A stretch of 32,000 nucleotides of DNA from Candidatus Scalindua sp. (GCA_021776915.1 JAIQZU010000039.1:89720-121719); one strand, 5' to 3'; counted from the first letter of the stretch, positions 12,366 through 30,253 are shown. A program made the numbers and translations. The notes: generated from the letters alone by a model not told the origin.

Positions 12366-12584
12366 TCAAGCAGGTTCGTCAGGCATGATTATTAAATAAC
12401 CTTTATTTATTAACCAGTGATGAAATTCATAAGTTGTATGAATGCATTCATTTTTACATATTGCCCTTATTCTTTCGTATTCTTCTGAACCATCCTCCTG
12501 AGCATCAAGATCAAGCTGCACCGGACACTTAATATCCTTGCAATATTCCCTGCGTTTATAATCAATATACCCTTCGATTGACAT
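12366..12584 (-). CDS. hypothetical small Cys-rich protein (72 aa)
   Basis: CKDIKC...CKNEC (CX4C...CX3C). Same strand as the aldolase and 70 bp upstream of it. Confidence 0.45.
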   Translation of the reverse strand: MSIEGYIDYKRREYCKDIKCPVQLDLDAQEDGSEEYERIRAICKNECIHTTYEFHHWLINKGYLIIMPDEPA

Positions 12585-13578: not shown

Positions 13579-14493
13579 TTAGCTCCTGGCAACAAACTCT
13601 TCCTGACTGACCGAACGAAAAAATCTGCTCCTTTCTTTCCTGCCTTTCGGCGGCAGACCTTGAGGAACCGGACACTGTCTTAAGGCTTCGTCACATTGAC
13701 CGCACACCGGAAAAGGCATAGAGTTTTTCAAGGCCCTCCTTTTCATTTCGGCTATAACAGAAACATCATCATTTGCCAGATTCCCGATTCGTGTAGCGCC
13801 GGTCAGGTCATGGCAGCATGCCAGCGCCTCCCCTTCCCATGTTACAAAGGTATGGAACTGAAAAAGGCTGCATATTCCGGATTCAAGTCCAATGGATCGA
13901 GGTGCATATATTTCCTGCAATCTTAGATTTCCACCCCGTCCGTGACATACTGTCATACTGGAGCCTACACCTCGCTCCTTCCAGAAACTGACATATTCTT
14001 CCTGTTCTCCACTATTGATATCAGTAATTATACCAGTAACCCTCAAGCCCACATTTCCCCTGGCAATATCTATTAATTCAAGAGTCCTCTTTAATGCGTC
14101 CTCATAAGACACATTTGGGCATAACTTCTCAAAGACACTTTTTCGCAGGCTTGGAAAAGAAAGTGTAATGGAATTGGGACTGGACTCGACAAGCCTTTGA
14201 GAAATATTTCTATTTAATGATGCAGGGTTTATCACGATCCCCACATCACCATCTTTCCTGCGGATGTCGTAAATCCATTCAAAAACCTTCTGGTGTGATA
14301 GAGGATCACCCATGCCAGAGAATGTAATAAGGCTTCCTTCACTGACAAGTTTATCCGTGACTGCCTTGAATACGTTTTCAGACATAAAACCCTCAGGCCT
14401 TGTTATAGCTTCGCGTGGACACATGAGGCAACCGGTACTGCACCGGTTGGTGAGCTCCATGTCTATGGATACAAACGCCCAGTCAGACGGCAT
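13579..14493 (-). CDS. radical SAM protein with C-terminal Cys-rich SPASM/twitch-like extension
   Basis: C18-STG-C22-LM-C25 (TNRCSTGCLMCPRE), FSGMGDPL. C-terminal ACCHD...GNL and CGQCDEALRQC. Start chosen at ATG 14493 behind GGAAGGAG; the longer track ORF (to 14673) overlaps the upstream gene by 190 bp. Confidence 0.8.
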   Translation of the reverse strand: MPSDWAFVSIDMELTNRCSTGCLMCPREAITRPEGFMSENVFKAVTDKLVSEGSLITFSGMGDPLSHQKVFEWIYDIRRKDGDVGIVINPASLNRNISQRLVESSPNSITLSFPSLRKSVFEKLCPNVSYEDALKRTLELIDIARGNVGLRVTGIITDINSGEQEEYVSFWKERGVGSSMTVCHGRGGNLRLQEIYAPRSIGLESGICSLFQFHTFVTWEGEALACCHDLTGATRIGNLANDDVSVIAEMKRRALKNSMPFPVCGQCDEALRQCPVPQGLPPKGRKERSRFFRSVSQEEFVARS

Positions 14494-15586
14494 CCTGCTT
14501 CTCCTTCCTGACTGCCTCCAGCCATGCAGTGCCAAAGCGTTTATCCGGTTCCAGATAATGGCCTTCACTCCACTCGTTCCATGACGCAATGAAGGAGAGT
14601 TGAGGTTTGTTGAATTTTCTTGTGTAGCTGATTGCACGGCCAAGAAAATCTGAAAAGAGTGCGGGGTCTTCATTTACAACAACAGGCCACCAGGGATAAC
14701 GCTCCTGTTTGTGGTATCCGTTTACGGCAGCCCGCGGTGTGGCGTCCCATCCTGGTGACACCGATGGAAAGTAAGCAAGCCCGGACTTATCAGCAAAACC
14801 TTCCCACTCTCTGCTTCGCTTTTTGACCAGTTTACCATAGTCCTGCTGGTATTCACCCTTCCAGTCAGGAAGCCAGACGTAGTGGCTTATGCTGTCAAAT
14901 CCAGACCTCTTGAACTCAGCAATCATAGAAGGCGCCGGATTGATGGCCATAAGATGAAGGCCGGGATATCCTCTCTTAATAAGATAGTCCTTAGCTTTGT
15001 AGATTGCCAGTGACGCCAGACTCGGCCCCAACTGCCGAAGGAAGAAGGTGCTGTCAAAGATAGAGAACAGGGGCATGCCATCTATGCGCAGGTAATTTGA
15101 TCTTGAAAAGTACCTTTCCTCAAGAAATCTTATCAACTCCACAAAATCATCAGGGTCGGTGTATACAAGCCTGCCTGGACCAATATCAGGGGCGGGTCGG
15201 TGTTTTACCGGAAGGACTCCACGGGGCATACGGTTTGCCCACATGAGAGAGAAAGGAAAATCATCGCCGCCATCTTTGCCTAGAAATCCATTATCAAGGG
15301 CCGCATCGAAAACACGTTTTCCCCGTGACCAGAAAAACCCGTACACAAAGAAATCCACACCGTATTCTCTGGCAAGCCCTACCTGTTTCTGTGCGGTAGA
15401 AGGAACTGAATCATCGTACGTCCCACCAACAGGGAGGCGTGGTTGATTATGACCTGGAAAACGGGACGGAGCATTCAAAACAAGGTCCCACTCACTCCAA
15501 CCCGGCTGAAAGTTACTGTCCCGTTCAACACAGGCATGCCAGCCCGGATAAACATATGCGCCAATCTTTGCATTCTCATTTGACAT
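14483..15586 (-). CDS. glycoside hydrolase family 99-like / WbsX-family glycan-processing protein
   Basis: Pattern GWSEW..V..AP.RFPGHNQPRLP...YDD, AREYGVDFFVY..FWS.GKR, DFPFSLMWAN, typical of the WbsX (GH99-like) family as recalled. The stop overlaps the radical SAM start by 11 bp. Confidence 0.75.
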   Translation of the reverse strand: MSNENAKIGAYVYPGWHACVERDSNFQPGWSEWDLVLNAPSRFPGHNQPRLPVGGTYDDSVPSTAQKQVGLAREYGVDFFVYGFFWSRGKRVFDAALDNGFLGKDGGDDFPFSLMWANRMPRGVLPVKHRPAPDIGPGRLVYTDPDDFVELIRFLEERYFSRSNYLRIDGMPLFSIFDSTFFLRQLGPSLASLAIYKAKDYLIKRGYPGLHLMAINPAPSMIAEFKRSGFDSISHYVWLPDWKGEYQQDYGKLVKKRSREWEGFADKSGLAYFPSVSPGWDATPRAAVNGYHKQERYPWWPVVVNEDPALFSDFLGRAISYTRKFNKPQLSFIASWNEWSEGHYLEPDKRFGTAWLEAVRKEKQDAV

Positions 15587-15715
15587 TTAATAATCAATTT
15601 TCTTTTTTATAAAAATTTAGTAAAACATCATGTGTTGGATGGTGAGATATTCATGGTAAAAGAAAGGAACAAGAACAAATTTGTCATTTTAAAAGATTTG
15701 AACTCCTGCCTCTAT

Positions 15716-17260
15716 TTACAACACATTAAAACCGCGAACCTTCAGTGTTTCCTCTAACCTTTCAGACTCATTCTTTGTGAGTGCTTCTATTTCCTCGGTA
15801 TTAGGAACTATAAGCTCATCTATCAACTCCGATTTTGAGAAAATGCCTAACACTGTACTTTCATTAAGTTTGGTAACACTGCCATAAAAAGCACTAAAGA
15901 ATATAACAGTTGTGTTTTCCAACTCCACCGACGAATTAAATAAAACCACATTTACATCTTTTGCAGGTTCAGATTCAGAAGAAAATTCTAATGAAAATTT
16001 AGGATTGTACTCTTGACCAACAATGTACAGCAAGTAGAAATGTCCTATTTTCTCAAAAACTTTATAAGGATAAATAAGTTCATCAATCAAATTTAGCTCG
16101 AATAATTTACTATACGTCGCATTAAATGCATTAAATTCCATTTCAAAATTCTCGGGTACTGATGTTGAACCCTGTGATAAAGAAACTTTAAGGGGAGTGC
16201 TACCATCCTTTGGTTCAACTTCGATATAGGTCTTACCTTCACTATCCGCTTCTTTCATGAAGCTAAGAAAACCATAAAGTTCTTTGATAGGAACCTTCAA
16301 TTTTTTATCTAACAAATTTTCAACATTAAAATTTAATTCATTACTCTCTAGCCGATAAACTATTTCAAACAATGACGTCTTTATTCTCATTGCTGCAAAT
16401 TTTTTAGGCAAATGCTTTGGCACCGTATATATTAAACCGTCAAACACGTATTTCTTTGAAAATTCTGACTGACTCAACTTCACTTTGGCTTTAGTAAGTT
16501 CATTTTCTATAGGCTTTATAGTAGTTGTATGATTCTTGTCCACATGAAGAGGAATCGTATCTGGAATGCCTAAAGGTGCTTGATACGTAGTGGTATCTAC
16601 CGTAAACTCTTCGTCATAGCCCAAGAAACAGTTTGCCATTGATCTTAGTGATTTTTCGTCATTCAATGTAATATTAAAATGTAAAAGACCGCTTTCAAGC
16701 TCAATACGTTTAAGCCATTTAACTTTCCTCTCAATGTAGGTTAAATAATCGGGTTTTGCTGACCTTGAGAATAACCCACTTAAACAATATCCACTAAGCT
16801 CAGTAAGGCTACAAGCCTCATCAAATTTTATAAGTTTTTTGCTTTTGTTTAGCTTTAAATCTTTGTTAGCAACTTCCTTATTTCTGAGAGTTTGTAATAC
16901 ATTAAGCGCTAAGTCTTCGTCTATATGCAGCAAGTAAGCTCTTTCAGGGTTAATTCCAGAATCGTAAAGCGCTAGAAAAATAAAGGTTGGTCCACCAAAT
17001 TGAATCAGATTTAGTAGATTACTATACGTTAGAGAACATTCAGGCTTTCCGCTTCTCGTAGCTTTTACTTGAACCCTGTAAACTTGGCGAACCTGGGATG
17101 TGTAATCAATTGTTGGTGAGTTTGGATGCTCAACCTCAAAGTCCCAACCAGCTTTATCATCATCAGAAGCATTTACAACTAGCCCTGCATCTTTTGCTAG
17201 CAATTTAAAGAAGCTTTCTCCCATAGATCCTAGATCTTCTGACCTTTTTGTATTAATCAT
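15716..17260 (-). CDS. DUF4365-like PD-(D/E)xK nuclease-fold N-terminal domain fused to an uncharacterised domain of about 380 aa
   Basis: N-terminus GESFFKLLAKDAGL...DKAGWD40FEVE...YRVQVK66AT matches the recalled DUF4365 / restriction-endonuclease-like D...E.K pattern. The remainder has no motif I recognise. Confidence 0.65.
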   Translation of the reverse strand: MINTKRSEDLGSMGESFFKLLAKDAGLVVNASDDDKAGWDFEVEHPNSPTIDYTSQVRQVYRVQVKATRSGKPECSLTYSNLLNLIQFGGPTFIFLALYDSGINPERAYLLHIDEDLALNVLQTLRNKEVANKDLKLNKSKKLIKFDEACSLTELSGYCLSGLFSRSAKPDYLTYIERKVKWLKRIELESGLLHFNITLNDEKSLRSMANCFLGYDEEFTVDTTTYQAPLGIPDTIPLHVDKNHTTTIKPIENELTKAKVKLSQSEFSKKYVFDGLIYTVPKHLPKKFAAMRIKTSLFEIVYRLESNELNFNVENLLDKKLKVPIKELYGFLSFMKEADSEGKTYIEVEPKDGSTPLKVSLSQGSTSVPENFEMEFNAFNATYSKLFELNLIDELIYPYKVFEKIGHFYLLYIVGQEYNPKFSLEFSSESEPAKDVNVVLFNSSVELENTTVIFFSAFYGSVTKLNESTVLGIFSKSELIDELIVPNTEEIEALTKNESERLEETLKVRGFNVL

Positions 17261-17325
17261 CTTCTATAACCTGAAAAATGTTGATGGCCACTGAAATAGA
17301 TTATACCATCTATATCTCGTTGTAT

Positions 17326-17583
17326 CTAATCATCCGCTGATTCAAAAAAGGTTTTCCCTTGCCTGATAAAAGCCTGAAATAATGAATATGTAGTTTTGAT
17401 TTCACGTTTATTTTTAATGCCATTTGAGCGTATAAAGTCATATCCAACTTCCTCAATTTTGGAGAGATAGTGAAGAGATGAAAATATTTCGTCATTAAGG
17501 GGACGATTTGTGTGTAAAGGAATTTTCGGGGACTGACTAAGATTCAAATCCATAAAGCCTGTCATTTTTCGATAATTTGCCAT
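17326..17583 (-). CDS. small hypothetical ORF (85 aa), possibly a truncated gene fragment
   Basis: Lies between the RM gene and the DUF4365-like gene on the same strand. The C-terminal YSLFQAFIRQGKTFFESA resembles the N-terminal helix of YaaC/Abi-like proteins (weak recollection). No SD seen. Confidence 0.3.
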   Translation of the reverse strand: MANYRKMTGFMDLNLSQSPKIPLHTNRPLNDEIFSSLHYLSKIEEVGYDFIRSNGIKNKREIKTTYSLFQAFIRQGKTFFESADD

Positions 17584-17688
17584 AAGTATGAATTATATTT
17601 TTTAGAGTATAACGCTTTGCATAACTTACCCGAAATTGAAATGCAAATTAAACTTGGTTACATTTCAACAGACAGAAATTTGGGTAGT

Positions 17689-20600
17689 TTATGCTAAATC
17701 CATAAATTGAATTTTATCTATTTCTTTCATAAGCCTGTCTGTTTCTGTCAACGCTACAATTATTTTCTGGTAATGCAAAATATCCTCAAAGGTTAATTCT
17801 CTACCTTTCCTGTCCTTTAGCCATTTCTGTGCGGGTTGATAACCACCGATGTAAAATTCCCACGCAATAACAGGTACTTTATCAAAATATTGCCGGTCAT
17901 TTATCCAGACACGGCCTGAGCCTTTTTCTTTATCAATTATTTCAAAATCATTTTTACCGATTTTACGAGTTACTATATTGTTACCATCATTTGGATAAGA
18001 AGTATTCCCTTGTTCAACTATAGGACTTTCCAATAAATGTATTTGCCGCAATTCTCCTCCAGGTTTTACCAATTGCCAGAATATATCCTTATCTTTGGGA
18101 TAAGGAACTCGTGGAAAATCTATTTTCAGAAACTCCTTGTATTTCTCACGGTAAGTGGGTGAGTATAAAACGGCATAGATATAATCCAGTATATCAATTG
18201 GCGCAAAGGTATTTACGGTACCGTCCTTTTCGTTGGTAAAGGTTAAACCGAGATTTGCTGCAATTTGTTTTACAATTACTTGGTTCAAGTTTGGTGTGCG
18301 TTCTTGTTCATTAAATAGTATTGATTGTCCATTGGTTTCTGGATAGAGGTAGAGGGGGAAAAGATATGATCTTTCTTTTGTTTCTAGCGATACAGTGCAA
18401 TCATTAATAAGTGCACTTGAACAAAGTATATGTCTGAATTTTCTATTTACTTGACGATTAGTAATCAACCCCAAATTCTCCTGCATCATATGACCCATAA
18501 CTTCCCTTCGTGAACGCTCAATAAGATCATCATGATAAAAAATCCATTGAATATCGAATGGCCTGTAGAGAATTTTTGTAACAGATTTTTCCCAATCTTT
18601 ACAGTCTATTATTCTCTCTCTTTTTTCTTTTAACTTCCAGTTGGATTTATCCTTTAAATTAAAGCTTTTTCGAATGATTTCATCTGATGCTGCTTTATTA
18701 CGAAACTCCATAATACGTGCTTTCAGGGAATCCTTATTAGAGTCAATTACAAAATTATCTCGTGAGGTAACTATCCCAACATTATTAACAGGAAAAATGT
18801 CTGTTACCTTCAGATACTTCTCATAATTTTTTGAGAGTTTTTCATCTCTTGGAATAAAAAAGTAAAATTCAGTTTTAGGTGTCAACTTCTTCCACTTTGT
18901 GGTCTTAATATCATTATTCAAAAGCCAGCTATATTTTTCTTGCCTTTTTCCATAAATATCAAAATGGAAAATATCGGCAGGCTTTGTTGAAGCGTGAGTT
19001 TTTACAAAAATATTAATTGAAACGCCTTGCATAATGTCAAAAATATTTTGGTCTTGTGAACCATCAGAACAAACTTCTTTCTTCTTAATGTTACCATGTA
19101 AATCTATGGTATAAATTTTATCGTAGGTTCTTAACAAGTTCCAACGCATTCCTCTAAACGTAGGATTATCTAAAAAACCGTGTGGATTAATAAACGCCAA
19201 AATACCTTCCCCGTTTTTTTCAATAAAATGTTGCCCATATCTAAGAAATTTTACATAGTCGTCATTAATCCATTTTGGATTTTTTTCTCTTAATTTTTCT
19301 TTCCCCCCAGGTTCTTTTTTGTAATCCTCCATTAGATTCATAATCCAATTCCCTTTATTAGCACTTTCTCCACTATAAGGAGGATTACCCAAAATCACCA
19401 TAACAGGCGTGTCCCTCTTTACTAAATTGGCTTCTGTTGCTTCCCTTGATAACCAACTCGCAAACAATGTCCCTGTATCGGGATGGGCTTCTTCAAGGCT
19501 GTTTGTCAGGAATACTCTTAATCTTTGTTGTTTGTTATTATCTCCAGGTTTATATCCTGTTTCACGCAAGAGCATTTCCAGTTTTAAATGGCATATCGTA
19601 TAAGATGCCATTAATATTTCAAAACCGTTAATGCGTGGTATAAGTTCATTTTCAACATAGTTTGACCAGATGCCTTTCTGATTTTCAAATTTTTTATATA
19701 TCTGCTTAACGACTTCAGTCAGAAAGGTACCCGTACCGGTTGCAGGATCAAGAATTTGTACTTTATGTACCTGCTTCTTTATTTTTTTGCCTACACCCTG
19801 TACCTCTACTTTCATTTCAATCTTGCTTGTATCGGCTAATCCCTGCTGTAAATCAAATTCGGTTTTCAAAATATCATCCACTGCTCTTACAATAAAATTA
19901 ACAACCGGTTCAGGTGTATAATACACACCTCGTGATTTCCGTAGTTTCGCGTCATATTCAGCGAGGAAGGTTTCGTAGAAATGAATGAAAGGGTCGTGTT
20001 GTTGGGTAGCTGTTCCGAAATCCGCCAACAGTGATTTTACGTCTGTCGCCCTGAAAATATCAGCAAGGTCATTTACAATCCAGACGACACGGTTGTCCAA
20101 ATCCGGGCCTGCAACATAAGTAAAGAGTTGTCTTAGAAATGGATTTGATTTTGGGACCAGAAACAGAGCTTCTTCCCTGGAAAAATCCTCTAATGTTGTA
20201 TCATGCAATCTTGCTGCAAATAAGCCATAGGCAATGGTCTGTGCGTAAATATCTGCAAATTGCTTTTCAGACAAGTCATGAATTAATATTTGACGGAAAG
20301 CGTCAAGTTGTTCTTTCAAAGTATTGTCTTCGTCTTCTGTCTCTACCGCTTTATGGATAACCTCTTCCATCATTCTGGCTTTATGAGCCATCATTTTAGC
20401 AAGCTTCTCAGCAGACTTTACGGTTTGTCCTTTAAAAGAACAAAAATCATTTATATGCAGAATAAATGATTCAAAGTTTTCTGACAATATGTTGAACTTG
20501 TTGTTTTCTGTGTCAATAATTTTTATGGTTTTAACTTTTTCGCCATATTTAATAAATCTGAATTCCATGTAGTCTGTTAAAATTAGATTATCAAGGCTCT

Positions 20601-20874
20601 TTTTATACCGTTTTAATTGGTCGGTTTTTTCAATCTTATCTAAATCAACTCCAATATCCTTTGCCTCAATGTAACCGATAGGCGCTTCTTTCCTTTGAAT
20701 TATATAATCAGGAGCGCCGCATTCCTGCCTTTTGGGTTCATTGGTTACATTTATCCCTTTTATGAGGTTTTGTAAAAGATTTTGTAAATCCCCACGGTAA
20801 CTATGCTCCGTTGAAATGCCTGTTCTAAATCTTTGTTTTATATTCTTACAATATTGTTCTATATCATTTTTCAT
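17689..20874 (-). CDS. type IIG (single-chain) restriction endonuclease / N6-adenine DNA methyltransferase
   Basis: N-terminal PD55-(x13)-E70AK72 nuclease motif (GAPDYII...GYIEAKD). GVYYTPEPVV. SAM motif I ILDPATGTGTF (aa 374-384). Motif IV NPPY (aa 497-500, nt 19375-19386), giving gamma-class order. Long C-terminal target-recognition region with FPLYLYPE and IDFPRVPYP. Confidence 0.85.
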   Translation of the reverse strand: MKNDIEQYCKNIKQRFRTGISTEHSYRGDLQNLLQNLIKGINVTNEPKRQECGAPDYIIQRKEAPIGYIEAKDIGVDLDKIEKTDQLKRYKKSLDNLILTDYMEFRFIKYGEKVKTIKIIDTENNKFNILSENFESFILHINDFCSFKGQTVKSAEKLAKMMAHKARMMEEVIHKAVETEDEDNTLKEQLDAFRQILIHDLSEKQFADIYAQTIAYGLFAARLHDTTLEDFSREEALFLVPKSNPFLRQLFTYVAGPDLDNRVVWIVNDLADIFRATDVKSLLADFGTATQQHDPFIHFYETFLAEYDAKLRKSRGVYYTPEPVVNFIVRAVDDILKTEFDLQQGLADTSKIEMKVEVQGVGKKIKKQVHKVQILDPATGTGTFLTEVVKQIYKKFENQKGIWSNYVENELIPRINGFEILMASYTICHLKLEMLLRETGYKPGDNNKQQRLRVFLTNSLEEAHPDTGTLFASWLSREATEANLVKRDTPVMVILGNPPYSGESANKGNWIMNLMEDYKKEPGGKEKLREKNPKWINDDYVKFLRYGQHFIEKNGEGILAFINPHGFLDNPTFRGMRWNLLRTYDKIYTIDLHGNIKKKEVCSDGSQDQNIFDIMQGVSINIFVKTHASTKPADIFHFDIYGKRQEKYSWLLNNDIKTTKWKKLTPKTEFYFFIPRDEKLSKNYEKYLKVTDIFPVNNVGIVTSRDNFVIDSNKDSLKARIMEFRNKAASDEIIRKSFNLKDKSNWKLKEKRERIIDCKDWEKSVTKILYRPFDIQWIFYHDDLIERSRREVMGHMMQENLGLITNRQVNRKFRHILCSSALINDCTVSLETKERSYLFPLYLYPETNGQSILFNEQERTPNLNQVIVKQIAANLGLTFTNEKDGTVNTFAPIDILDYIYAVLYSPTYREKYKEFLKIDFPRVPYPKDKDIFWQLVKPGGELRQIHLLESPIVEQGNTSYPNDGNNIVTRKIGKNDFEIIDKEKGSGRVWINDRQYFDKVPVIAWEFYIGGYQPAQKWLKDRKGRELTFEDILHYQKIIVALTETDRLMKEIDKIQFMDLA

Positions 20875-20950
20875 TATATTTCATTTTTACAAAATATTTT
20901 TTATTTCTTCTAAGTAAATTACGCCAAAATCGGGGACGTGTTTACACATC

Positions 20951-21715
20951 TCACTGCCTTTTTTTGTTAAATATACGTTTTATCCGGTACCTAATTGCGC
21001 CAATGTTGAACCAAAATTCAGCCCATCTCTCTTTAAACGGCCTATTCAAATCACGATATTCGTGCCGAATACACAATAAAAGCTTAAGATACGGATCCTC
21101 TACAGGCTCATCAATTGTCTCACAAGCATTTTCATTAACTCTTTTTAATGCAATGTGCTCATTTTTAACTTTATCAGGGGGCAATAACCTCGTCTTCTCC
21201 AAGTTTTCAGCAATCGCAGGGCTGAAATAGGATAAATTTTCAGTAACATGTTTTATAAGCCGTATAAATCTCTTGGCGAAATCTTCATTTTCCAGATGAA
21301 AAACAGGAGATTGATAATTTATGAATTCATCAAGCCTCCTAGTCTGTTTGTCTCTTTCATGTGCATGGTAAGCTTCACGCACCTTGTTGCAAAACTCTCT
21401 TTTGCCTTCCTCGGATTTTATATGCTCTGGTATGTAGAAATTAAAACCGTAAGTTTGCTCTATCCAATGCGCATTCGAGAATTCGTTTACCGCCCTTTCT
21501 AGATCTTTGTCTTCGCTTTCAAAAGTAGATTCTTGTTCATTCTTATAATGATAAAGCAGTAGATCCGAAGCATCATGGTAGACTTTGTCATATACTCGCG
21601 CTCGCTCATTTCTCCTTGCAATTTTCGACTGTCTGATTGAAAACAGAAAACTTAACGCTGCAACAACAAGGCTACCTAAGGATATGTAAATTGCTATCTG
21701 TGATTTTTCTGTCAT
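20951..21715 (-). CDS. hypothetical membrane-anchored helical protein
   Basis: Single N-terminal TM helix (IAIYISLGSLVVAALSFLFSI), then a charged alpha-helical-looking region. Lies 76 bp upstream of the RM gene on the same strand. Confidence 0.5.
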   Translation of the reverse strand: MTEKSQIAIYISLGSLVVAALSFLFSIRQSKIARRNERARVYDKVYHDASDLLLYHYKNEQESTFESEDKDLERAVNEFSNAHWIEQTYGFNFYIPEHIKSEEGKREFCNKVREAYHAHERDKQTRRLDEFINYQSPVFHLENEDFAKRFIRLIKHVTENLSYFSPAIAENLEKTRLLPPDKVKNEHIALKRVNENACETIDEPVEDPYLKLLLCIRHEYRDLNRPFKERWAEFWFNIGAIRYRIKRIFNKKRQ

Positions 21716-21870
21716 ATCGTGCCTAGTAGATTACAAGTTATTATAAAGTTCTGAATAACATCACTATAGTAACGTTATTCTATAGAAATATTGTTATGTT
21801 AGTATTATAAAGACAGCGATTAAGTATTTGAATTATAGAGTGCTATTTCACGTCATACTCAATGCAATAG

Positions 21871-22167
21871 TTAGGTTTGATCTTTGTCTAATAAACGTTT
21901 TCCATGTATAACGGCTAAAATATAAATTTCCTTACCTTTTATTTCATAAATTAACCGATATTGAAAAACAAATAACTCCCGAATGGCTGCGTCACCAATT
22001 TCTGGAACAACACGGCCGGATTTGGGGAAATGAATTAAGGATTGAGGAGTTTCATAAATTTTGTTGACCGTTGATTCAGCATAAAATGCAGAATCTCTTG
22101 CTATGTATTCCCCAATTGCGTCAATATCTTCCAAAGCTTCTGGAGACCAAATTATTTTGTAATCCAT
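21871..22167 (-). CDS. parE: type II toxin, RelE/ParE family
   Basis: IIWSPEALEDIDAIGEYIARDS...YRLIYEIKGKEIYILAVIHGKR is the typical ParE/RelE pattern. 98 aa. Confidence 0.85.
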   Translation of the reverse strand: MDYKIIWSPEALEDIDAIGEYIARDSAFYAESTVNKIYETPQSLIHFPKSGRVVPEIGDAAIRELFVFQYRLIYEIKGKEIYILAVIHGKRLLDKDQT

Positions 22168-22340
22168 TTTGCTAGTCGAGCTTTGGCTTCTTCATTAGAA
22201 ATACCATTACCATTTTTTATGGATTCCTGACCTTTGCGGATTTTTTCAAGAACGTAAAGATGGTATTGGATGTCTTCCAATGTAGCCTTTTCCGGCAAGT
22301 GATGAATCATCTCTGCAATGTCATCTTTTAAAGTACTCAT
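22152..22340 (-). CDS. cognate antitoxin (small, 62 aa)
   Basis: Immediately upstream of the toxin with a 16-bp overlap. Its size and position are typical of a type II antitoxin. Confidence 0.7.
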   Translation of the reverse strand: MSTLKDDIAEMIHHLPEKATLEDIQYHLYVLEKIRKGQESIKNGNGISNEEAKARLAKWITK

Positions 22341-22812
22341 AGCTGAAATATAGAAAACTTTGATTTTAAGTTTAAGTAAAGACTAACTTAGGTTATGTGG
22401 CTATATACATTATTATTTTTTACGGCTATCAATTAAATCTGTATTGTAAATATATAGTTAACAAATCCATACGTCAATAATAATACATTAGCATCACTGC
22501 CCTAAGACTATCAAGGTTTTAGAGGTTTATTGTGTTACAAAAGATAAGGGTAATACTGATATTGACCTTAGCCTTTACAAACGTATCCTTGTTTTTCTGT
22601 CGAGCAGGCATAATATGGTTCCTAAATTTAGGTTTATTTTGTTTTTCCTGTTTCTCTACTCTTTCGATTGTAGAGTGTCACATTATTCTATCCAAATCTT
22701 TCTGAATCTTATAAATAACTTCCTTTACGCCTAATGTAAGAGAATGTAATCCATAAACACCGAATTAACAATCATCAATTTTAAATCTTCAATAGTCAAT
22801 CTAAAATCTCCC

Positions 22813-24981: not shown

Positions 24982-25164
24982 GAAAGCATTTAGCTATAAA
25001 TGGATAATGAAAATGCCTCTCGATATGCTTATTAAGGATGTAATATACTCTCAATTAATAATGAACGGTCTTGAAGGCAAATTCATGTATAGGTAGTAAG
25101 TCCGAGATATTATTGACTCTTTTTCTCTTGAATTGGATATTATTTTGCTTTACAATCCTCCTCA

Positions 25165-25566
25165 ATGGTAGAATGGGACGATAAATATAGCGTGGGGATA
25201 TCAATAATTGATGACGAGCATAAGCAGCTTATTGATATTCTCAACAAGGTTATTTACGCAAAGGAACACAAAGACAATCAAGAAGAAATAAGGAAAATAT
25301 TAAAAGAAATGATTGGCTACGCTCTTACGCATTTTCAAACTGAAGAGAATAGCATGATAAAATTCAATTATCCAGAGTATCAAGACCACAAAGATGAACA
25401 CCACGGTTTTTTCACTAAAACAATTGCTTATGTCGACAAAATGATTGAAGGTGACTTCCAAATAGCAAATGATTTACTGGAATACTTAAAGCAGTGGTTA
25501 GTTAACCATATTCAAGGCACTGATAAAAAATATATCGACTGTTTCAAGAAACATGGATTAAAGTAA
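25165..25566 (+). CDS. bacteriohemerythrin (hemerythrin-like metal-binding protein)
   Basis: WDDKYSVGISIIDDEHKQLIDILN, HFQTEE, YPEYQDHKDEH, WLVNHIQGTDKKY. Confidence 0.85.
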   Translation: MVEWDDKYSVGISIIDDEHKQLIDILNKVIYAKEHKDNQEEIRKILKEMIGYALTHFQTEENSMIKFNYPEYQDHKDEHHGFFTKTIAYVDKMIEGDFQIANDLLEYLKQWLVNHIQGTDKKYIDCFKKHGLK

Positions 25567-25569
25567 ATT

Positions 25570-25587
25570 CCTGAAAATTATTTCAGG
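25570..25587. terminator. short hairpin in the 26-bp gap between convergent genes (CCTGAAA-atta-TTTCAGG)
   Basis: Perfect 7-bp stem read directly. Only a weak T-rich flank (AATTTACTT on the minus strand). Confidence 0.35.
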
Positions 25588-25592
25588 GGCAA

Positions 25593-27620
25593 CTATTTCG
25601 CATCAAGTTGACAAACCCAATCCCATCCCGGTGCAGGCTCCATTTGTTTATTCTCTTTACACCTCTGAATATACAGCTTTGCCGGTTTGTCTTCCGGTTC
25701 CAAACGCAAGACCTGCATAAATAAGGAACTTGCTTCTTCCCATTGACGATCACGATAAGCATAAAGACCTGCTTCAAAATATTCAAGAAGAGTTGTTTTC
25801 TCTCCGTCAATTTTACCTTTTTCTGCCACAAGCTCGAATATTTTAACAGGCTTTTTTTTGCCTACCACCCGAATGATGTCTAATTCCCTTGTAATCAGTG
25901 TATCCTTTATATGCAAATGGGTTCTTTCTGAAATGATAATCTGAGTACCATAATGCTTATTCGCCCCTTCCAGCCGGCTTGCAAGATTGACATCATCTCC
26001 AATAATAGTATATTCGAAACGGGAAGATGATCCTATATTTCCAACAACCACCTCTCCCGTGTTGAGACCAAAACGGTAAGTTCTGGGAGGATATCCGAAC
26101 GCAACCCACATTTTCTCTAAATAATTTAAAAACCCCTTACACCTGAGCGCTGCTTTACAAGCAAGCAAAGCATGGTTCTCCTGAGGAATGGGCGCCCCCC
26201 AAAAAGCAAGGATACTGTCACCTTGAAATTTATTAATAGTCCCATCATATTCCAGGATGGCAGTAGTCATTCCACGGAAGTATGTGTTGAGATCTCTAAC
26301 CACATCTTCTGGTTGATGCAATTCGCATAGATGTGTAAAATCTCCAATATCCGTAAAAAAAATGGTCAAGCATTTTCTCTCCCCCCCAAGGCGAAGCATA
26401 TCAGGATTTTTGATAATTTCTGCCGCCACATTAGGAGAAACATAACGCTCAAAGGTACTCTTAATAAAATCCCGTTCCTTAAGTCCTGTTACCATACCAT
26501 TAAAAGCATCCCCAAGGTGTTCTAATTCATCTCCTGTACGTATATCGACCTTCGTTTCCAGTCTGCCCTTACCGATTTCTTTTGCCGCCAGAGCCAGTTT
26601 CTTTACAGGCCTTGTGATACCTCTCGATAGAAAGAAGCTGAAACCAATGGCAACAAGAAGAATGATGCCCCCCACAGAAAGGAGGGTTATGCGAAGTTTT
26701 GATACAAATTTGAGTTCCTCCGTGAGGGATTTAAGAACAATGAAACCACCTTCTTCTACACGTGCCTTCGCAAGTATTGGAATAGGCATGGATAAGAATT
26801 TTTCATTTTCGAGAATGGTTTCATGAATATCTCGATCATTCTCATAATCTAGAGATTTTATGAAAGTAGTGAGTGCTTGCATCTGTGCCGCTGGCAAGGT
26901 AGAAACATGAACACCTTCAACTGAATAGAGCGCCAAATCTACCCCGGAAATACTCTTAATACGTGAAAGGGTATCTTTGTCAATGCGGTTTCCACAGATC
27001 ACTACACCATGGATTTCGTCTCTAAATATTATTGGTTTTGCAATCACCTGATAAACAGCATCTCTCTCTTCAGTTGGAATAAGGAAATAATTCTTTTCTT
27101 GCATATGTGCATACCATACATCGGTTGCCATACCATTTTCTGCCAGTTCTTCAAATAAACGAAGACTGGTCAAGTCATCCCCAAATCTCTCCGGAGATGC
27201 CTTTGAGAAGAGCAATTTACCTTCCGCATTGGTCACAATAAAGATGTCTGTTTCTGTGTACATGGAAAGAAAGGGAAGAATCGAGTACAGCCTTAGATAT
27301 GCTTCTTTCAGGAGTACACCTTCTTTACCAGCCTCACCAAAGCCCATGTCATCGCCACTTACTGAAGAGGTCGAAAGGATCGACCGAAAATGTGCATTGC
27401 TGACAGTAAGATTATTTATGGCATCAATGGCAAATTTTGCCCTCAATTTTTGAAGGTGCCTGAGGGCTACACGAGTACTTTCAAATCTAGCCTTGATATT
27501 CTCCTGTATACGTTTTTTAGTGGTTTCCTGAAGGATGAATAAGAGGCTCATCGTTGAGAGGCAAACCACTGCTCCCAGCACTATGAATAATTTGGTGTGA
27601 AAATTAATCTTGATCTTCAT
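25593..27620 (-). CDS. membrane sensor class III adenylate/guanylate cyclase (periplasmic sensor, TM, HAMP, cyclase, TPR-like tail)
   Basis: HAMP-like RPVKKLALAAKEIGKGRLETKVDIRTGDELEHLGDAFNGM. Cyclase core TIFFTDIGDFTHL, KFQGDSILAFWGAP, GLNTGEVVVGNIGS, YTIIGDDVNLASRLEG. Start placed at MKIKINF (27620), just before the first TM helix; the track start is 27680. Confidence 0.85.
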   Translation of the reverse strand: MKIKINFHTKLFIVLGAVVCLSTMSLLFILQETTKKRIQENIKARFESTRVALRHLQKLRAKFAIDAINNLTVSNAHFRSILSTSSVSGDDMGFGEAGKEGVLLKEAYLRLYSILPFLSMYTETDIFIVTNAEGKLLFSKASPERFGDDLTSLRLFEELAENGMATDVWYAHMQEKNYFLIPTEERDAVYQVIAKPIIFRDEIHGVVICGNRIDKDTLSRIKSISGVDLALYSVEGVHVSTLPAAQMQALTTFIKSLDYENDRDIHETILENEKFLSMPIPILAKARVEEGGFIVLKSLTEELKFVSKLRITLLSVGGIILLVAIGFSFFLSRGITRPVKKLALAAKEIGKGRLETKVDIRTGDELEHLGDAFNGMVTGLKERDFIKSTFERYVSPNVAAEIIKNPDMLRLGGERKCLTIFFTDIGDFTHLCELHQPEDVVRDLNTYFRGMTTAILEYDGTINKFQGDSILAFWGAPIPQENHALLACKAALRCKGFLNYLEKMWVAFGYPPRTYRFGLNTGEVVVGNIGSSSRFEYTIIGDDVNLASRLEGANKHYGTQIIISERTHLHIKDTLITRELDIIRVVGKKKPVKIFELVAEKGKIDGEKTTLLEYFEAGLYAYRDRQWEEASSLFMQVLRLEPEDKPAKLYIQRCKENKQMEPAPGWDWVCQLDAK

Positions 27621-27710
27621 ATATGCAGCAACCCCCTGGAAATCAACAAAACTATGCGGCCAACTTACGGAGAATTGCATAACACTCAGTTAATAGACTG
27701 TGCCTACTAT

Positions 27711-28442
27711 TTACAGGTCAGTTGCCTTATACTCTACCTCTGGGGGATATTCTGAACCATCCTTCCGATTATGAGGCTTCATTTTAAGGACCTCTTCTAT
27801 TTCCAAATGTATTTCCGTTTTCTGCCCGGGCTGAACGACGATTTCCTGACTGACCCGTTTCGCCTGAGGTAACCATGCATTGATATTGTAAGTACCGGGA
27901 GGTACGTTCCCTATTTGAAATGTACCATCTTTATCAGTCATGGCATAGGCATTATTCTCTAAGACGACTACATAAGTAATCATTTCTGGATGGATATTAC
28001 AAAAAATTGGTATAAGGCCGGGTTTTTCGAAAGTCACCAATTTCGGTGGTTCTTCTCCTTTATATTGTCCAAGATCAAAAGACTTTACAGGGGATATGGA
28101 GAAGACGTTGTGGTATATATTATCACGATTTGGAAACCGAACCTCTTGCCCGGCTACTACTGGCAGGATATCAGGAGAAAATTTTTTGTCTTTTTGCACA
28201 ATGTCCGGGACTTCTTCAGGCGCCTCATTTTTAAAACCTATGATATAAACGACCACTCCGCTCATGTCTTTCTTCTTCTTAGTTCCCCCAAAAAGCTTTT
28301 TTTGAAAAACAGTAATATCTCCAGTTACATGACCCATATTTGGAGATCCATAGCTCACCGAAGCAAAAACAAAAAGTATCACCAGAAAAGGAACAATTGC
28401 TATTACACGGACAGAAAAAATACTTCTAGAAAAGAAATTCAT
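27711..28442 (-). CDS. secreted cupredoxin-like plus carboxypeptidase-regulatory-like (Ig-like) domain protein
   Basis: Signal peptide. FPNRDNIYHNVFS...FCNIHPEM (His...Cys-x2-His-x2-Met, cupredoxin-like ligand spacing). DKDGTFQIGNVPPGTYNINAW. GGAGG SD. Confidence 0.6.
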   Translation of the reverse strand: MNFFSRSIFSVRVIAIVPFLVILFVFASVSYGSPNMGHVTGDITVFQKKLFGGTKKKKDMSGVVVYIIGFKNEAPEEVPDIVQKDKKFSPDILPVVAGQEVRFPNRDNIYHNVFSISPVKSFDLGQYKGEEPPKLVTFEKPGLIPIFCNIHPEMITYVVVLENNAYAMTDKDGTFQIGNVPPGTYNINAWLPQAKRVSQEIVVQPGQKTEIHLEIEEVLKMKPHNRKDGSEYPPEVEYKATDL

Positions 28443-28714
28443 AAGTCCTCCTTCACAAAAAAGTTTTGATTTTAAGGAAAGCTAATACTGAACATAAGCA
28501 TTTTGTGCGGATTGCAGTATTGAAATACCGAAAAAATGAAGTAATAGACTCGTTTGCTTCTAAATTGTAAAAACCAAAACCACTATTTGAGGGGTTATAG
28601 TGTGTGGCATGAAAACTAGTAGATTGTGTAATTCTAGTCATTATAATAGTGATGTTAAGTATTGAAATCAAGTTTAAAATAATAATTGGCTCAAACCTGA
28701 AGAAACATCTTTAT

Positions 28715-30253
28715 ATGATTAAATGCAAACTAACCATTATTATTATTTTGTTACTTTTCACATTCTCCGGATGTCTGGCCAGATATGGGGAAGGCAGGCT
28801 TGAGCAGCTACTTCTATCAATAAATGATTTAGAAGAGGACAGCGAAGAATTGACTGAAGAGAAGATCAAGGAGAAGCTCGGTAAACCGGGATTATTAAAG
28901 CCCATTTATGAACGTAATCTCAACTCTTCTTCTTTATATAATCTTAAAAAAGACTCTGGTGTTTTATTAATACCCAATCGCACAGACCTATATGATGACA
29001 TGCTGACAGCCGTCAAGAAAAAAAGATCAAGCAGTATTAAACTGCTCTCTTATGTTTATGACAGAAGGGGATCCCTGGAACTCTCTTCCCTGACGTTTTA
29101 CATAGAAAGCTTTGAAGGCATAGCGCAAGATGAACCTAAGGTATTTGGATGGGATTATGTGAAATATGGCAACAAGAACAACTCCAAAAGAAGCAGACAG
29201 TCTTATATTAATTATAAGATTAAGAAGCCCACAGATTACTTGAGAATACCATATACATTCTTGGTAGACACAGTTATCGGACTTAAGCAATTTGCAGGTG
29301 AGATTATCAAGTCTCCAATTTCTTTTATTGAAACAGAATTATACAAGAATATATTTGTTGAGAGAAAGATACCGTTTTATAAGTTTGAAGGTTTTAAAGC
29401 CGCCGGCGAAGACTGGCGGAATGGGTTTACTGCACTTATATATAGACACAGGATTGATGGGAATCAGGGAATAGTTGAGACAACTCAGAATTTGTTGGGA
29501 GAAATCCCGCTTATGGGTTCGCTTCTTGATCAATGGCACACGAATGATAGCGGCACTGCAAATAGACTGTTTCTGACAAGGGGCATTTACGGCGGTAATG
29601 ACTCTGCCCAGAATACGGCCTTATGGGCTCACTATCTAACAAACCCGTCAGAGGTATATTCGCCAGATCTGTCCACCAATCAAACGGGTAGTCTCACTCC
29701 GAAAGAAACAAACCGAGTAGATAAAAAAGAGAACAACAATCCTTATGTAAAAGTAATACCCTATAGATATGGAGGCGGCGTTGACGTTTTATGGGCTTTG
29801 CTTAATATATCACATGGTTATGCCTACGATATGGCGTCAGAGATTATCTCTAAACATGATGTAAATCCGGGTGATTCTATTCACTTAAGTGGACACAGCG
29901 GAGGCGTTCAAAGAAATATTGCGGCAGCGAGGATTCTCAATGATGATGGTATTAAGGTAGAAAAGATTTACGGGATTGCGGGCCCTGCACTGGGCTACGC
30001 TCCATCCATGAAAACAAAGGTGGTGCTGAATAGCAAATTCATGGATGATCCGGTCTCCGAAATATCTCGATTCCTGAGATATATTACATTAGATTTATTA
30101 GCATTAAACATAGATTGGAACGACGATAAGTGCGAAGGCAGCCGTAAAGAAGATGGATTTTATAAACATATAACGCCCGGGTTTGTTGATGGAAGAACGA
30201 GATTAAAGTATGACGGCTATTTAAATGCCTGTTTGAAAGATTTCTTCAAGTAA
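28715..30253 (+). CDS. hypothetical lipoprotein with serine-hydrolase-like GHSGG elbow
   Basis: Lipobox LLFTFSGC after MIKCKLTIIIILL. HLSGHSGGVQRN lies near the C-terminal third. The track ORF begins earlier, at GTG 28649. Confidence 0.6.
   Translation: MIKCKLTIIIILLLFTFSGCLARYGEGRLEQLLLSINDLEEDSEELTEEKIKEKLGKPGLLKPIYERNLNSSSLYNLKKDSGVLLIPNRTDLYDDMLTAVKKKRSSSIKLLSYVYDRRGSLELSSLTFYIESFEGIAQDEPKVFGWDYVKYGNKNNSKRSRQSYINYKIKKPTDYLRIPYTFLVDTVIGLKQFAGEIIKSPISFIETELYKNIFVERKIPFYKFEGFKAAGEDWRNGFTALIYRHRIDGNQGIVETTQNLLGEIPLMGSLLDQWHTNDSGTANRLFLTRGIYGGNDSAQNTALWAHYLTNPSEVYSPDLSTNQTGSLTPKETNRVDKKENNNPYVKVIPYRYGGGVDVLWALLNISHGYAYDMASEIISKHDVNPGDSIHLSGHSGGVQRNIAAARILNDDGIKVEKIYGIAGPALGYAPSMKTKVVLNSKFMDDPVSEISRFLRYITLDLLALNIDWNDDKCEGSRKEDGFYKHITPGFVDGRTRLKYDGYLNACLKDFFK

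Follow-up and report, generated by a model that had tools for sequence, protein, structure and literature searches.

Two candidate single-gene defence modules beside a toxin-antitoxin pair and a type IIL/IIG restriction-modification enzyme in Candidatus Scalindua sp.

Gene content of the locus

We have analysed a stretch of 32,000 nucleotides of Candidatus Scalindua sp. (GCA_021776915.1, JAIQZU010000039.1:89720-121719), hereafter the window, of which a preliminary description had singled out a run of six genes as a defence-like island with several uncharacterised members. The six open reading frames (ORFs), all on the minus strand, are present as described (Table 1): a candidate antitoxin, a ParE-family toxin, a membrane-anchored protein that we call p254, a type IIL/IIG restriction-modification (RM) enzyme, a small ORF (p85), and a protein with a nuclease-fold head (p514). 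The defence-type character of the locus is borne out by the ParE toxin-antitoxin pair and the RM enzyme, but its unity is not: rather than a single island, the segment is a mosaic of a core shared with Candidatus Scalindua arabica and two separate strain-specific insertions. We consider it likely that p254 and p514, one in each insertion, are independent mobile modules and not accessories of the RM enzyme; each is also a candidate defence gene, an assignment for which we see about even chances.

Among the six, only the RM enzyme matches a system model of PADLOC-DB v2 (p254, p85, ParE and the antitoxin have no match there), and p254, p85 and p514 are without a significant match in Pfam, NCBIfam, PHROGs and PADLOC. 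The GC content is 34.4% in the interval 15615-22554 as compared with 39.9% in the rest of the window, and at third codon positions the six ORFs have a mean GC content of 29.8%, while the other genes of the window have 37.2 ± 7.0%. The AT-richness stressed in the preliminary description is thus real with respect to the immediate flanks, which are far richer in GC (46.5-49.8% in the radical SAM and WbsX genes, 47.4% in yjbQ), but it does not hold as a distinctive mark: since genes at 28-1651, 12366-12584 and 25165-25566 are equally AT-rich, composition alone does not set the segment apart. Neither tRNA genes nor flanking repeats above chance level were found in the window as possible borders of an island; no Rfam family was found in the p85 region or in the rest of the window, and a promoter scan returned counts no higher than the chance level.

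Table 1. Position, strand and basis of assignment of the features discussed in the text (window coordinates)
Feature	Position	Strand	Basis or remark
Candidate antitoxin, 62 aa	22152-22340	-	ORF upstream of ParE, 16-nt overlap
ParE-family toxin, 98 aa	21871-22167	-	PF05016 match
p254, 254 aa	20951-21715	-	N-terminal membrane anchor and conserved domain
Type IIL/IIG RM enzyme, 1061 aa, single chain	17689-20874	-	PADLOC, Pfam and PDB sequence matches
p85, 85-aa ORF	17326-17583	-	No family match; probably not a functional gene
p514, 514 aa	15716-17260	-	Nuclease-fold head and ~380-aa tail
p514 N-terminal domain, aa 1-~135	16856-17260	-	Predicted DUF4365/DREN-type PD-(D/E)xK nuclease
p514 C-terminal module, aa ~136-514	15716-16855	-	Two beta-rich domains plus helices (model)
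815-bp indel bearing p254 alone	20918-21732		blastn against Ca. S. arabica
RM gene, mosaic block (codons ~501-890)	18205-19374	-	Distant allele relative to Ca. S. arabica
2.05-kb strain-specific cargo slot	15615-17660		From RM stop codon to wbsX start
178-nt stretch within p85	17400-17577	-	84% identical to the start of a metagenomic contig (L045)

Comparison with Candidatus Scalindua arabica

The corresponding locus of Ca. S. arabica (L037) has the order BrkB, yjbQ, antitoxin, ParE, type IIG enzyme (1058 aa), slot genes, WbsX and radical SAM, and in blastn alignments both the flanks and the core formed by the toxin-antitoxin pair and the RM gene are collinear with the window. The segment that bears p254 is missing: window positions 20917 and 21733 both abut position 8602 of L037, and the pentanucleotide GTAAT is present at each edge of the indel. 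The slot between the RM gene and wbsX is filled differently in the two species: where the window has p85 and p514, Ca. S. arabica has 1.0 kb of DNA with toxin-antitoxin-like genes unrelated to them, which code for a ParE-like toxin (PF15781), a protein with an HTH_17 match and a CopG-like protein (L037 11891-12794). As a side observation, the Ca. S. arabica RM gene is thus flanked by two ParE-type modules. Within the RM gene itself, the interval 18305-18998 of the window has no blastn alignment to L037.

The level of synonymous divergence (dS) from Ca. S. arabica is far from uniform along the locus: it is lowest in the toxin-antitoxin pair (0.06-0.09), intermediate in the conserved parts of the RM gene (0.20-0.36) and highest in the core flanks (0.56-1.08). 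The ParE/antitoxin region (window 21733-22554, L037 7777-8602) is 95.6% identical at the DNA level. This gradient indicates that the shared modules were exchanged between lineages after the core genes had diverged; the exchange seems to have been recent for the toxin-antitoxin pair and, to a lesser extent, for the RM gene. We conclude that the interval between yjbQ and wbsX is a variable cargo hotspot, with several independent modules and not one system.

The comparison also bears on the proposal, made in the preliminary description, that the three uncharacterised genes might be accessory components of the RM enzyme. In Ca. S. arabica the orthologous RM enzyme occupies the corresponding position although p254, p85 and p514 are absent. 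None of the three is therefore an obligate accessory, and most homologues of p254 and p514 in other genomes have no RM neighbour.

The toxin-antitoxin pair and the restriction-modification enzyme

The shared core consists of ordinary representatives of known kinds. The toxin matches the ParE family PF05016 with an E-value of 7.8e-19 (68.5 bits, cut-off 23), and the small ORF that overlaps its start completes the arrangement of a ParE/RelE toxin with an overlapping antitoxin that had been described. An identical antitoxin protein adjoins ParE in Ca. S. arabica, and the sequence occurs also in related metagenomic contigs. With respect to Ca. S. arabica dS is 0.056 for the antitoxin and 0.085 for ParE, the latter with a ratio of non-synonymous (dN) to synonymous divergence of 0.155. 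The pair resembles the ParDE-type type II systems in its ParE_toxin domain and in the small overlapping upstream gene in the antitoxin position; it is unlike them in that the antitoxin belongs to no Pfam or NCBIfam family, ParD, Phd and RHH included. The partner is predicted to neutralise the toxin.

The RM enzyme matches the PADLOC model REase_MTase_IIG over its full length (1206 bits). In Pfam it matches Type_ISP_C, a target recognition domain (TRD), again over the full length of the model (E 2.9e-89, 300 bits), and N6_Mtase (43.1 bits, cut-off 20.4), with MmeI_Mtase and Eco57I also above their cut-offs. A PD...ExK nuclease motif, kept in the Ca. S. arabica orthologue, lies at residues 53-73 (GAPDYIIQRKEAPIGYIEAKD, which reads 'PDYIIQ...GYIEAKD'), and the methylase carries motif I as ILDPATGTGTFL and NPPY as 'GNPPYSG', as expected for a gamma-class N6-adenine methylase. 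The order of the domains is PD...ExK nuclease, helical connector, methylase and Type_ISP_C TRD, all in one chain, in agreement with the fused nuclease-methylase of the preliminary description. The nearest solved sequence relatives are 7lo5 (a 1029-aa adenine methyltransferase chain, E 5e-38), which we take to be DrdV, and the type ISP enzymes LlaBIII and LlaGI. The alignment to 7lo5_A covers residues 298-1031; that to LlaBIII spans only LlaBIII residues 846-1521, and no helicase/translocase domain was found with Pfam, an absence that we used to separate the enzyme from type ISP. DrdV is a type IIL enzyme of 1029 residues with the same order of domains (bioRxiv 10.1101/2021.01.06.425610). The likeness to enzymes of the DrdV/MmeI type lies in the single chain with nuclease, connector, NPPY methylase and C-terminal TRD and in the lack of a helicase; the difference lies in a block at the C-terminal part of the methylase and the TRD, which in the window departs sharply from the Ca. 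S. arabica allele.

Overall the two Scalindua enzymes are 75% identical, but this value is the average of two very different regimes: outside codons ~501-890 the identity is ~97%, while inside it drops to ~35-40% (BLASTP). When calculated over windows of 100 codons, dN/dS ranges from 0.03 to 0.15 in the conserved parts, which points to strong purifying selection on the gene, whereas in the block dN is 0.36-0.81 and dS is saturated. We read the block as an allelic replacement, by a distant allele, of the C-terminal half of the methylase and most of the TRD; since it is the methylase-C/TRD region that has been exchanged, the enzymes of the two species probably recognise different sequences. We conclude that the RM enzyme is in all likelihood functional and works without p254, p85 and p514.

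The p254 family

The N-terminal anchor previously ascribed to p254 is supported by a single hydrophobic segment at about residues 7-29, and since this putative helix is followed by basic residues, the conserved domain of ~225 residues is probably cytoplasmic. The family comprises 51 homologous clusters with 44-79% identity to the window protein, mostly from Gammaproteobacteria. The genera named among its members are mainly Vibrio, Shewanella, Pseudomonas, Oleispira, Endozoicomonas, Yersinia and Erwinia, to which Sulfuricurvum is to be added; the identity to the named Gammaproteobacteria, 44-69%, is unusually high for a planctomycete host and suggests horizontal transfer. Among the motifs that are strongly conserved in the family alignment are YDKVYHDASDLLL, NAHWLEQTYG, NYQSPVFHL, HVTENLSYFSP, LKRVNExxCE, DDPYL and IRHEYRxLN, none of which indicates a known family; p254 has no relative in Pfam, PADLOC, NCBIfam or the PDB, and no solved structure is related to it by sequence. 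An assignment to the HEPN RNases was considered and rejected: HEPN-like_int matches only one of 20 members (E 0.054), and the R-x5-H sequence of the window protein (cf. Rx4-6H) is not conserved.

What makes this uncharacterised family unusual is how telling its contexts are. In Vibrio a p254 homologue constitutes the whole of a cassette between two ~132-nt VCR-like attC repeats of a chromosomal integron array. Other homologues (55, 48 and 44% identity) lie between gpA (replication) and the portal gene in a P2-like prophage of Yersinia (L036) and in three P2-like contigs of IMG/VR; as the prophage and one of these contigs (L046) share essentially one gene layout, at least three diverged P2-like phages carry relatives of p254. 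The interval between gpA and gpQ is the old/tin locus, a hotspot of anti-phage systems in P2-like phages (PMC9122126). In another of the P2-like contigs (L047, 1772-2236) a gene for a SocA/Panacea-domain antitoxin stands beside the p254 homologue in the same interval. The Oleispira homologue adjoins IS66. The gene is always solitary, and no conserved partner was seen among the contexts viewed.

The sites occupied by p254 homologues are exactly the two kinds from which the cargo of the P2 old/tin hotspot and the defence cassettes of sedentary integrons are known (PMC9122126; bioRxiv 10.1101/2024.07.02.601686). The window gene is unlike both in having neither an attC nor a surrounding phage; inspection of the 33 nt that follow its stop codon revealed no R''/R' boxes, and we therefore rejected the idea that p254 is here an integron cassette.

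The p514 family

The nuclease-fold head attributed to p514 in the preliminary description is supported by fold searches and by an invariant motif, the DUF4365 score of the protein itself being below threshold. The first ~85 residues match DUF4365 (PF14280) with 18.5 bits (E 2e-3; cut-off 24.3) and, weakly, the PADLOC candidate family PDC-M02A (E 7e-6). Two members of the family exceed the DUF4365 cut-off (P0155 with 27.9 bits and P0200 with 25.5 bits), and two others have a precomputed PF14280 assignment (P0029 and P0033). Residues D40, E44, R62, Q64 and K66 are invariant and E15 nearly so; D40, Q64 and K66 were checked in 20 sequences. With a full-length AlphaFold2 model (predicted local distance difference test, pLDDT, of 88), the top fold matches in the PDB are the DREN-APAZ chains of SPARDA systems (Foldseek, E 1.5e-5), and those in a viral fold library are a phage DUF4365 protein (target-normalised TM-score, TMt, 0.55) and nucleases resembling Holliday-junction resolvases. 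Q64 and K66 correspond to Q62 and K64 of TmuRE, the DUF4365 nuclease of a SPARDA-type system, for which these have been proposed as active-site residues (PMC10810196).

The tail (residues 136-514), when modelled alone, folds into two beta-rich domains plus helices (pLDDT 86.8), for which a search of the PDB gave nothing significant (best E 5e-3, probability 0.2). In that search SPARDA comes only at rank 47 (E 0.23), so the SPARDA match of the full-length model must come from the nuclease head alone, and the notion of p514 as an orphan DREN-APAZ protein was discarded. By sequence p514 has no relative of solved structure, the SPARDA chains included, and the tails of 19 relatives give no signal in Pfam. 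The close family consists of 40 clusters, all of full-length proteins of ~515 residues. A profile of the tail reaches 336 clusters at 50% identity (160 with E <= 1e-10), nearly all of them proteins of 500-535 residues with the module at ~133-515; the distant members that we sampled again have the DUF4365 head, and none of them is a named PADLOC system. The family thus appears to be sizeable and fixed in its architecture, with a tail that is not covered by the annotation libraries searched here.

Two known systems invite comparison. With SPARDA, in which a short prokaryotic Argonaute is paired with a DREN-APAZ protein, p514 shares the DUF4365/DREN fold of the head and the Q-x-K signature; it differs in having a tail that is not APAZ and no sequence similarity to the SPARDA chains, and no Piwi/Argonaute family was found among its neighbours in the window, nor among those of its homologues in ~15 contexts. 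Divona, a validated single-gene defence system from a Vibrio cholerae integron, has an N-terminal DUF4365 nuclease (bioRxiv 10.1101/2024.07.02.601686). Like p514 it is one protein in which such a nuclease is fused to an unrelated C-terminal domain, and it is mobile cargo; the tail of Divona, with which p514 was compared by domain description only, is crr6 (PF08847), and this family has no match in p514 or in 19 relatives at E-values up to 5. p514 is predicted to be a DREN/DUF4365 effector with a novel control module and without an Argonaute.

About 15 independent neighbourhoods of p514 relatives were viewed. Most of the relatives are solitary and are either carried by mobile DNA or adjacent to it: in Pseudomonas fulva this is an integrative element that has integrases and insertion sequences (IS), in Hydrogenophaga Mu/IS21 transposases, and elsewhere a resolvase, and, in another case, a serine recombinase with ParA and a NERD protein. 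Distant relatives occur on an Alteromonas plasmid, on a Klebsiella IncFIB plasmid, and in an integrative and conjugative element of Legionella next to TraD and near ArdA. Together with the P2 hotspot and the Vibrio cassette of p254, these cases agree with the expectation that homologues of the two proteins would be found in defence-type or mobile contexts.

Alternative interpretations

Several observations weigh against a defensive role for the two modules. Both p254 and p514 are without a match among the named PADLOC systems. Searches for p254 in INPHARED phages, PLSDB plasmids and genomes of E. coli, the species in which the P2 hotspot was surveyed, found none, and relatives of p514 were not found in phage collections or in IMG/VR. 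Some p514 homologues are insertions amid housekeeping genes (Nramp/MerR in one case, enoyl-CoA hydratase in another) with no mobile or defence gene as a neighbour. The 815-bp indel may be an insertion in the window or a deletion in Ca. S. arabica. The function of p254 could be in lysogenic conversion or in membrane maintenance, and for p514 the mechanism of activation rests on analogy, sensing or oligomerisation by a tail of no known fold being guesses.

The alternative that survives best, although we regard it as rather unlikely, is that p254, p514 or both are cargo of mobile genetic elements with no part in defence, that is, addiction or maintenance functions, lysogenic conversion genes, or selfish nuclease genes gathered at shared permissive sites. 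Both families travel on mobile elements or as isolated insertions; the Scalindua hotspot collects toxin-antitoxin pairs too, and many of the genes found in integron cassettes and in P2 hotspots are not defence systems. Even in the P2 hotspot, only 3 of 8 additional systems that were cloned gave protection (PMC9122126). The recurrence of p254 at the same gpA-gpQ position in diverged phages speaks against this alternative, as does the head of p514, since nucleases of the DREN type are so far known from immune effectors.

It is more doubtful that p514 is functionally coupled to the type IIG enzyme, whether as a guard nuclease released when restriction is inhibited, after the manner of PrrC and EcoprrI, or as a co-expressed second-line nuclease. 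This idea draws on the position of p514 relatives, which in 3 of the ~15 contexts are co-directional with, and just downstream of, a type IIG gene, a frequency that we infer to be well above chance for so rare a class of genes. The three RM genes belong to three lineages: in the window p514 follows, after a gap of 428 bp, the enzyme with the Type_ISP_C TRD; in L011/L012 the gap is of 20 bp and the RM protein (ISP_coupler/Eco57I/Type_ISP_C) is 21-24% identical to that of the window; and in L029 (1593-6001) a type IIG gene of the MmeI_N/Eco57I/TaqI_C kind is followed, at a distance of 630 bp, by a 229-aa relative, with two small ORFs in between. Against coupling stands the Ca. S. arabica locus, which retains the orthologous RM gene without p514, as do the remaining ~12 of the 15 contexts, in which p514 relatives have no RM gene nearby. 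Nor is p514 the missing nuclease of its neighbours, a role that we considered and rejected: all three RM partners have a PD...ExK motif of their own and therefore no need of a separate nuclease subunit. Chance is an improbable explanation of the recurrence, which may stem from functional coupling or from the use of one cargo slot behind RM genes. The Scalindua comparison demonstrates a slot of this kind, filled in Ca. S. arabica with unrelated toxin-antitoxin genes, and this can by itself explain the co-location.

Two peculiarities of these neighbourhoods are recorded here. The 229-aa protein of L029 corresponds only to the N-terminal ~208 residues of p514 (48% identity); it is a copy that has been truncated or else a form that naturally consists of the nuclease alone. 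In L011 (6840-9980) the ISP-like RM gene that precedes the p514 relative P0003 is split, directly after the methylase motif 'GVVYTPNEIV', into ORFs of 330 and 712 aa, which reflects a frameshift, a pseudogene or an assembly error.

We attach a similarly low probability to p514 being a solitary, modification-dependent endonuclease of a type IV-like kind, in which the beta-rich tail would bind modified DNA and the PD-QxK head would cut it. The architecture, a nuclease head with a large non-catalytic tail, would suit such an enzyme, as would the solitary occurrence without a cognate methylase and the occasional position beside RM genes. Type IV enzymes often adjoin RM genes. The tail model also gives weak matches to beta-barrel and pseudo-barrel folds, among them a B3-type DNA-binding domain (4ldy, probability 0.11). 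However, none of the known readers of modified bases (SRA, EVE/ASCH/PUA, YTH, winged-helix and others) is significantly similar to p514, and the closest characterised DUF4365 nucleases, those of SPARDA, are collateral and not specific for a site or a modification.

The third of the genes called uncharacterised in the preliminary description, p85, does not hold up as a gene. It has a single homologue (P0129, 68% identity over 71%, on a 2.3-kb contig), and this is not followed by a p514 relative. The DNA similarity to positions 1-178 of the otherwise unrelated contig L045 ends in the middle of the ORF, all reading frames score alike (blastn and tblastx), and the 28 substitutions are spread as 11/7/10 over codon positions 1/2/3, with no sign of codon-position dependence. 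A conserved small ORF was also sought upstream of five other p514 genes and was found before none of them, the gap in L011 being just the 20 bp given above. From these data p85 is probably an ORF without function that happens to span a stretch of conserved DNA. That it is instead a real small protein with a regulatory or neutralising effect on p514, such as an antitoxin or a transcription factor, is very improbable, although it precedes p514 by 65 bp in the same orientation, within one strain-specific segment, and is annotated as a gene in public assemblies.

Other features of the window

Two observations concern the surroundings of the locus. A block of 3.7 kb (25001-28726) has no counterpart in the otherwise collinear locus of Ca. 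S. arabica and represents a second strain-specific indel; it contains genes for a hemerythrin (25165-25566), a CHASE4-HAMP-adenylate/guanylate cyclase (25593-27680) and a cupredoxin/CarboxypepD_reg protein (27711-28442). The radical SAM/SPASM ORF (13579-14673) overlaps, as listed, the WbsX ORF (14483-15586) by 190 nt, and measures 364 aa in the window as compared with 300 aa in Ca. S. arabica; because of the overlap and of the shorter gene in Ca. S. arabica, its upstream start is probably over-extended in the window.

Proposed function and significance

The interpretation that we favour, by a narrow margin, is that p254 and p514 would each be an autonomous, horizontally mobile single-gene module, with a function most likely directed against phages or plasmids, and that p85 would play no functional role. 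In this scheme p514 would be a latent nuclease of the DREN type. In SPARDA the DREN domain is activated by oligomerisation, through the assembly of filaments. By analogy, the tail of ~380 residues might sense a cue from the invader or drive oligomerisation, and its switching would turn on the N-terminal D...QxK nuclease, with degradation of DNA as the outcome. p254 may act as a membrane-anchored factor for exclusion or abortive infection, with the cytoplasmic domain as either sensor or effector.

A more ambitious version can be offered only tentatively, and we would sooner expect it to fail in some part than to hold as a whole. According to it, p514 would found a family of Argonaute-independent DREN proteins, in which a novel sensor or oligomerisation module of ~380 residues controls a collateral D...QxK nuclease to give immunity with one protein, repeatedly placed behind type IIG genes and possibly serving as a back-up for cases in which restriction is blocked; p254 would be, independently, a new membrane-anchored exclusion or abortive-infection factor that P2-like phages, Vibrio integrons and an anammox planctomycete have in common.

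Candidate single-gene defence families have already been reported in large numbers. Those described here are two concrete candidates for anti-phage or anti-plasmid activity, for which family alignments and predicted catalytic residues are at hand. That p254 occurs in a planctomycete as well as in integron cassettes and at the P2 old/tin hotspot suggests that its function is highly portable. If the prediction for p514 is true, it would show that the nuclease known from the DREN partner of short Argonautes has also been paired with a quite different control module. For an uncultured anammox lineage, the locus as a whole provides a clear natural instance of a defence hotspot, with swapping of cargo and replacement of the specificity domain of an RM enzyme between sister species.

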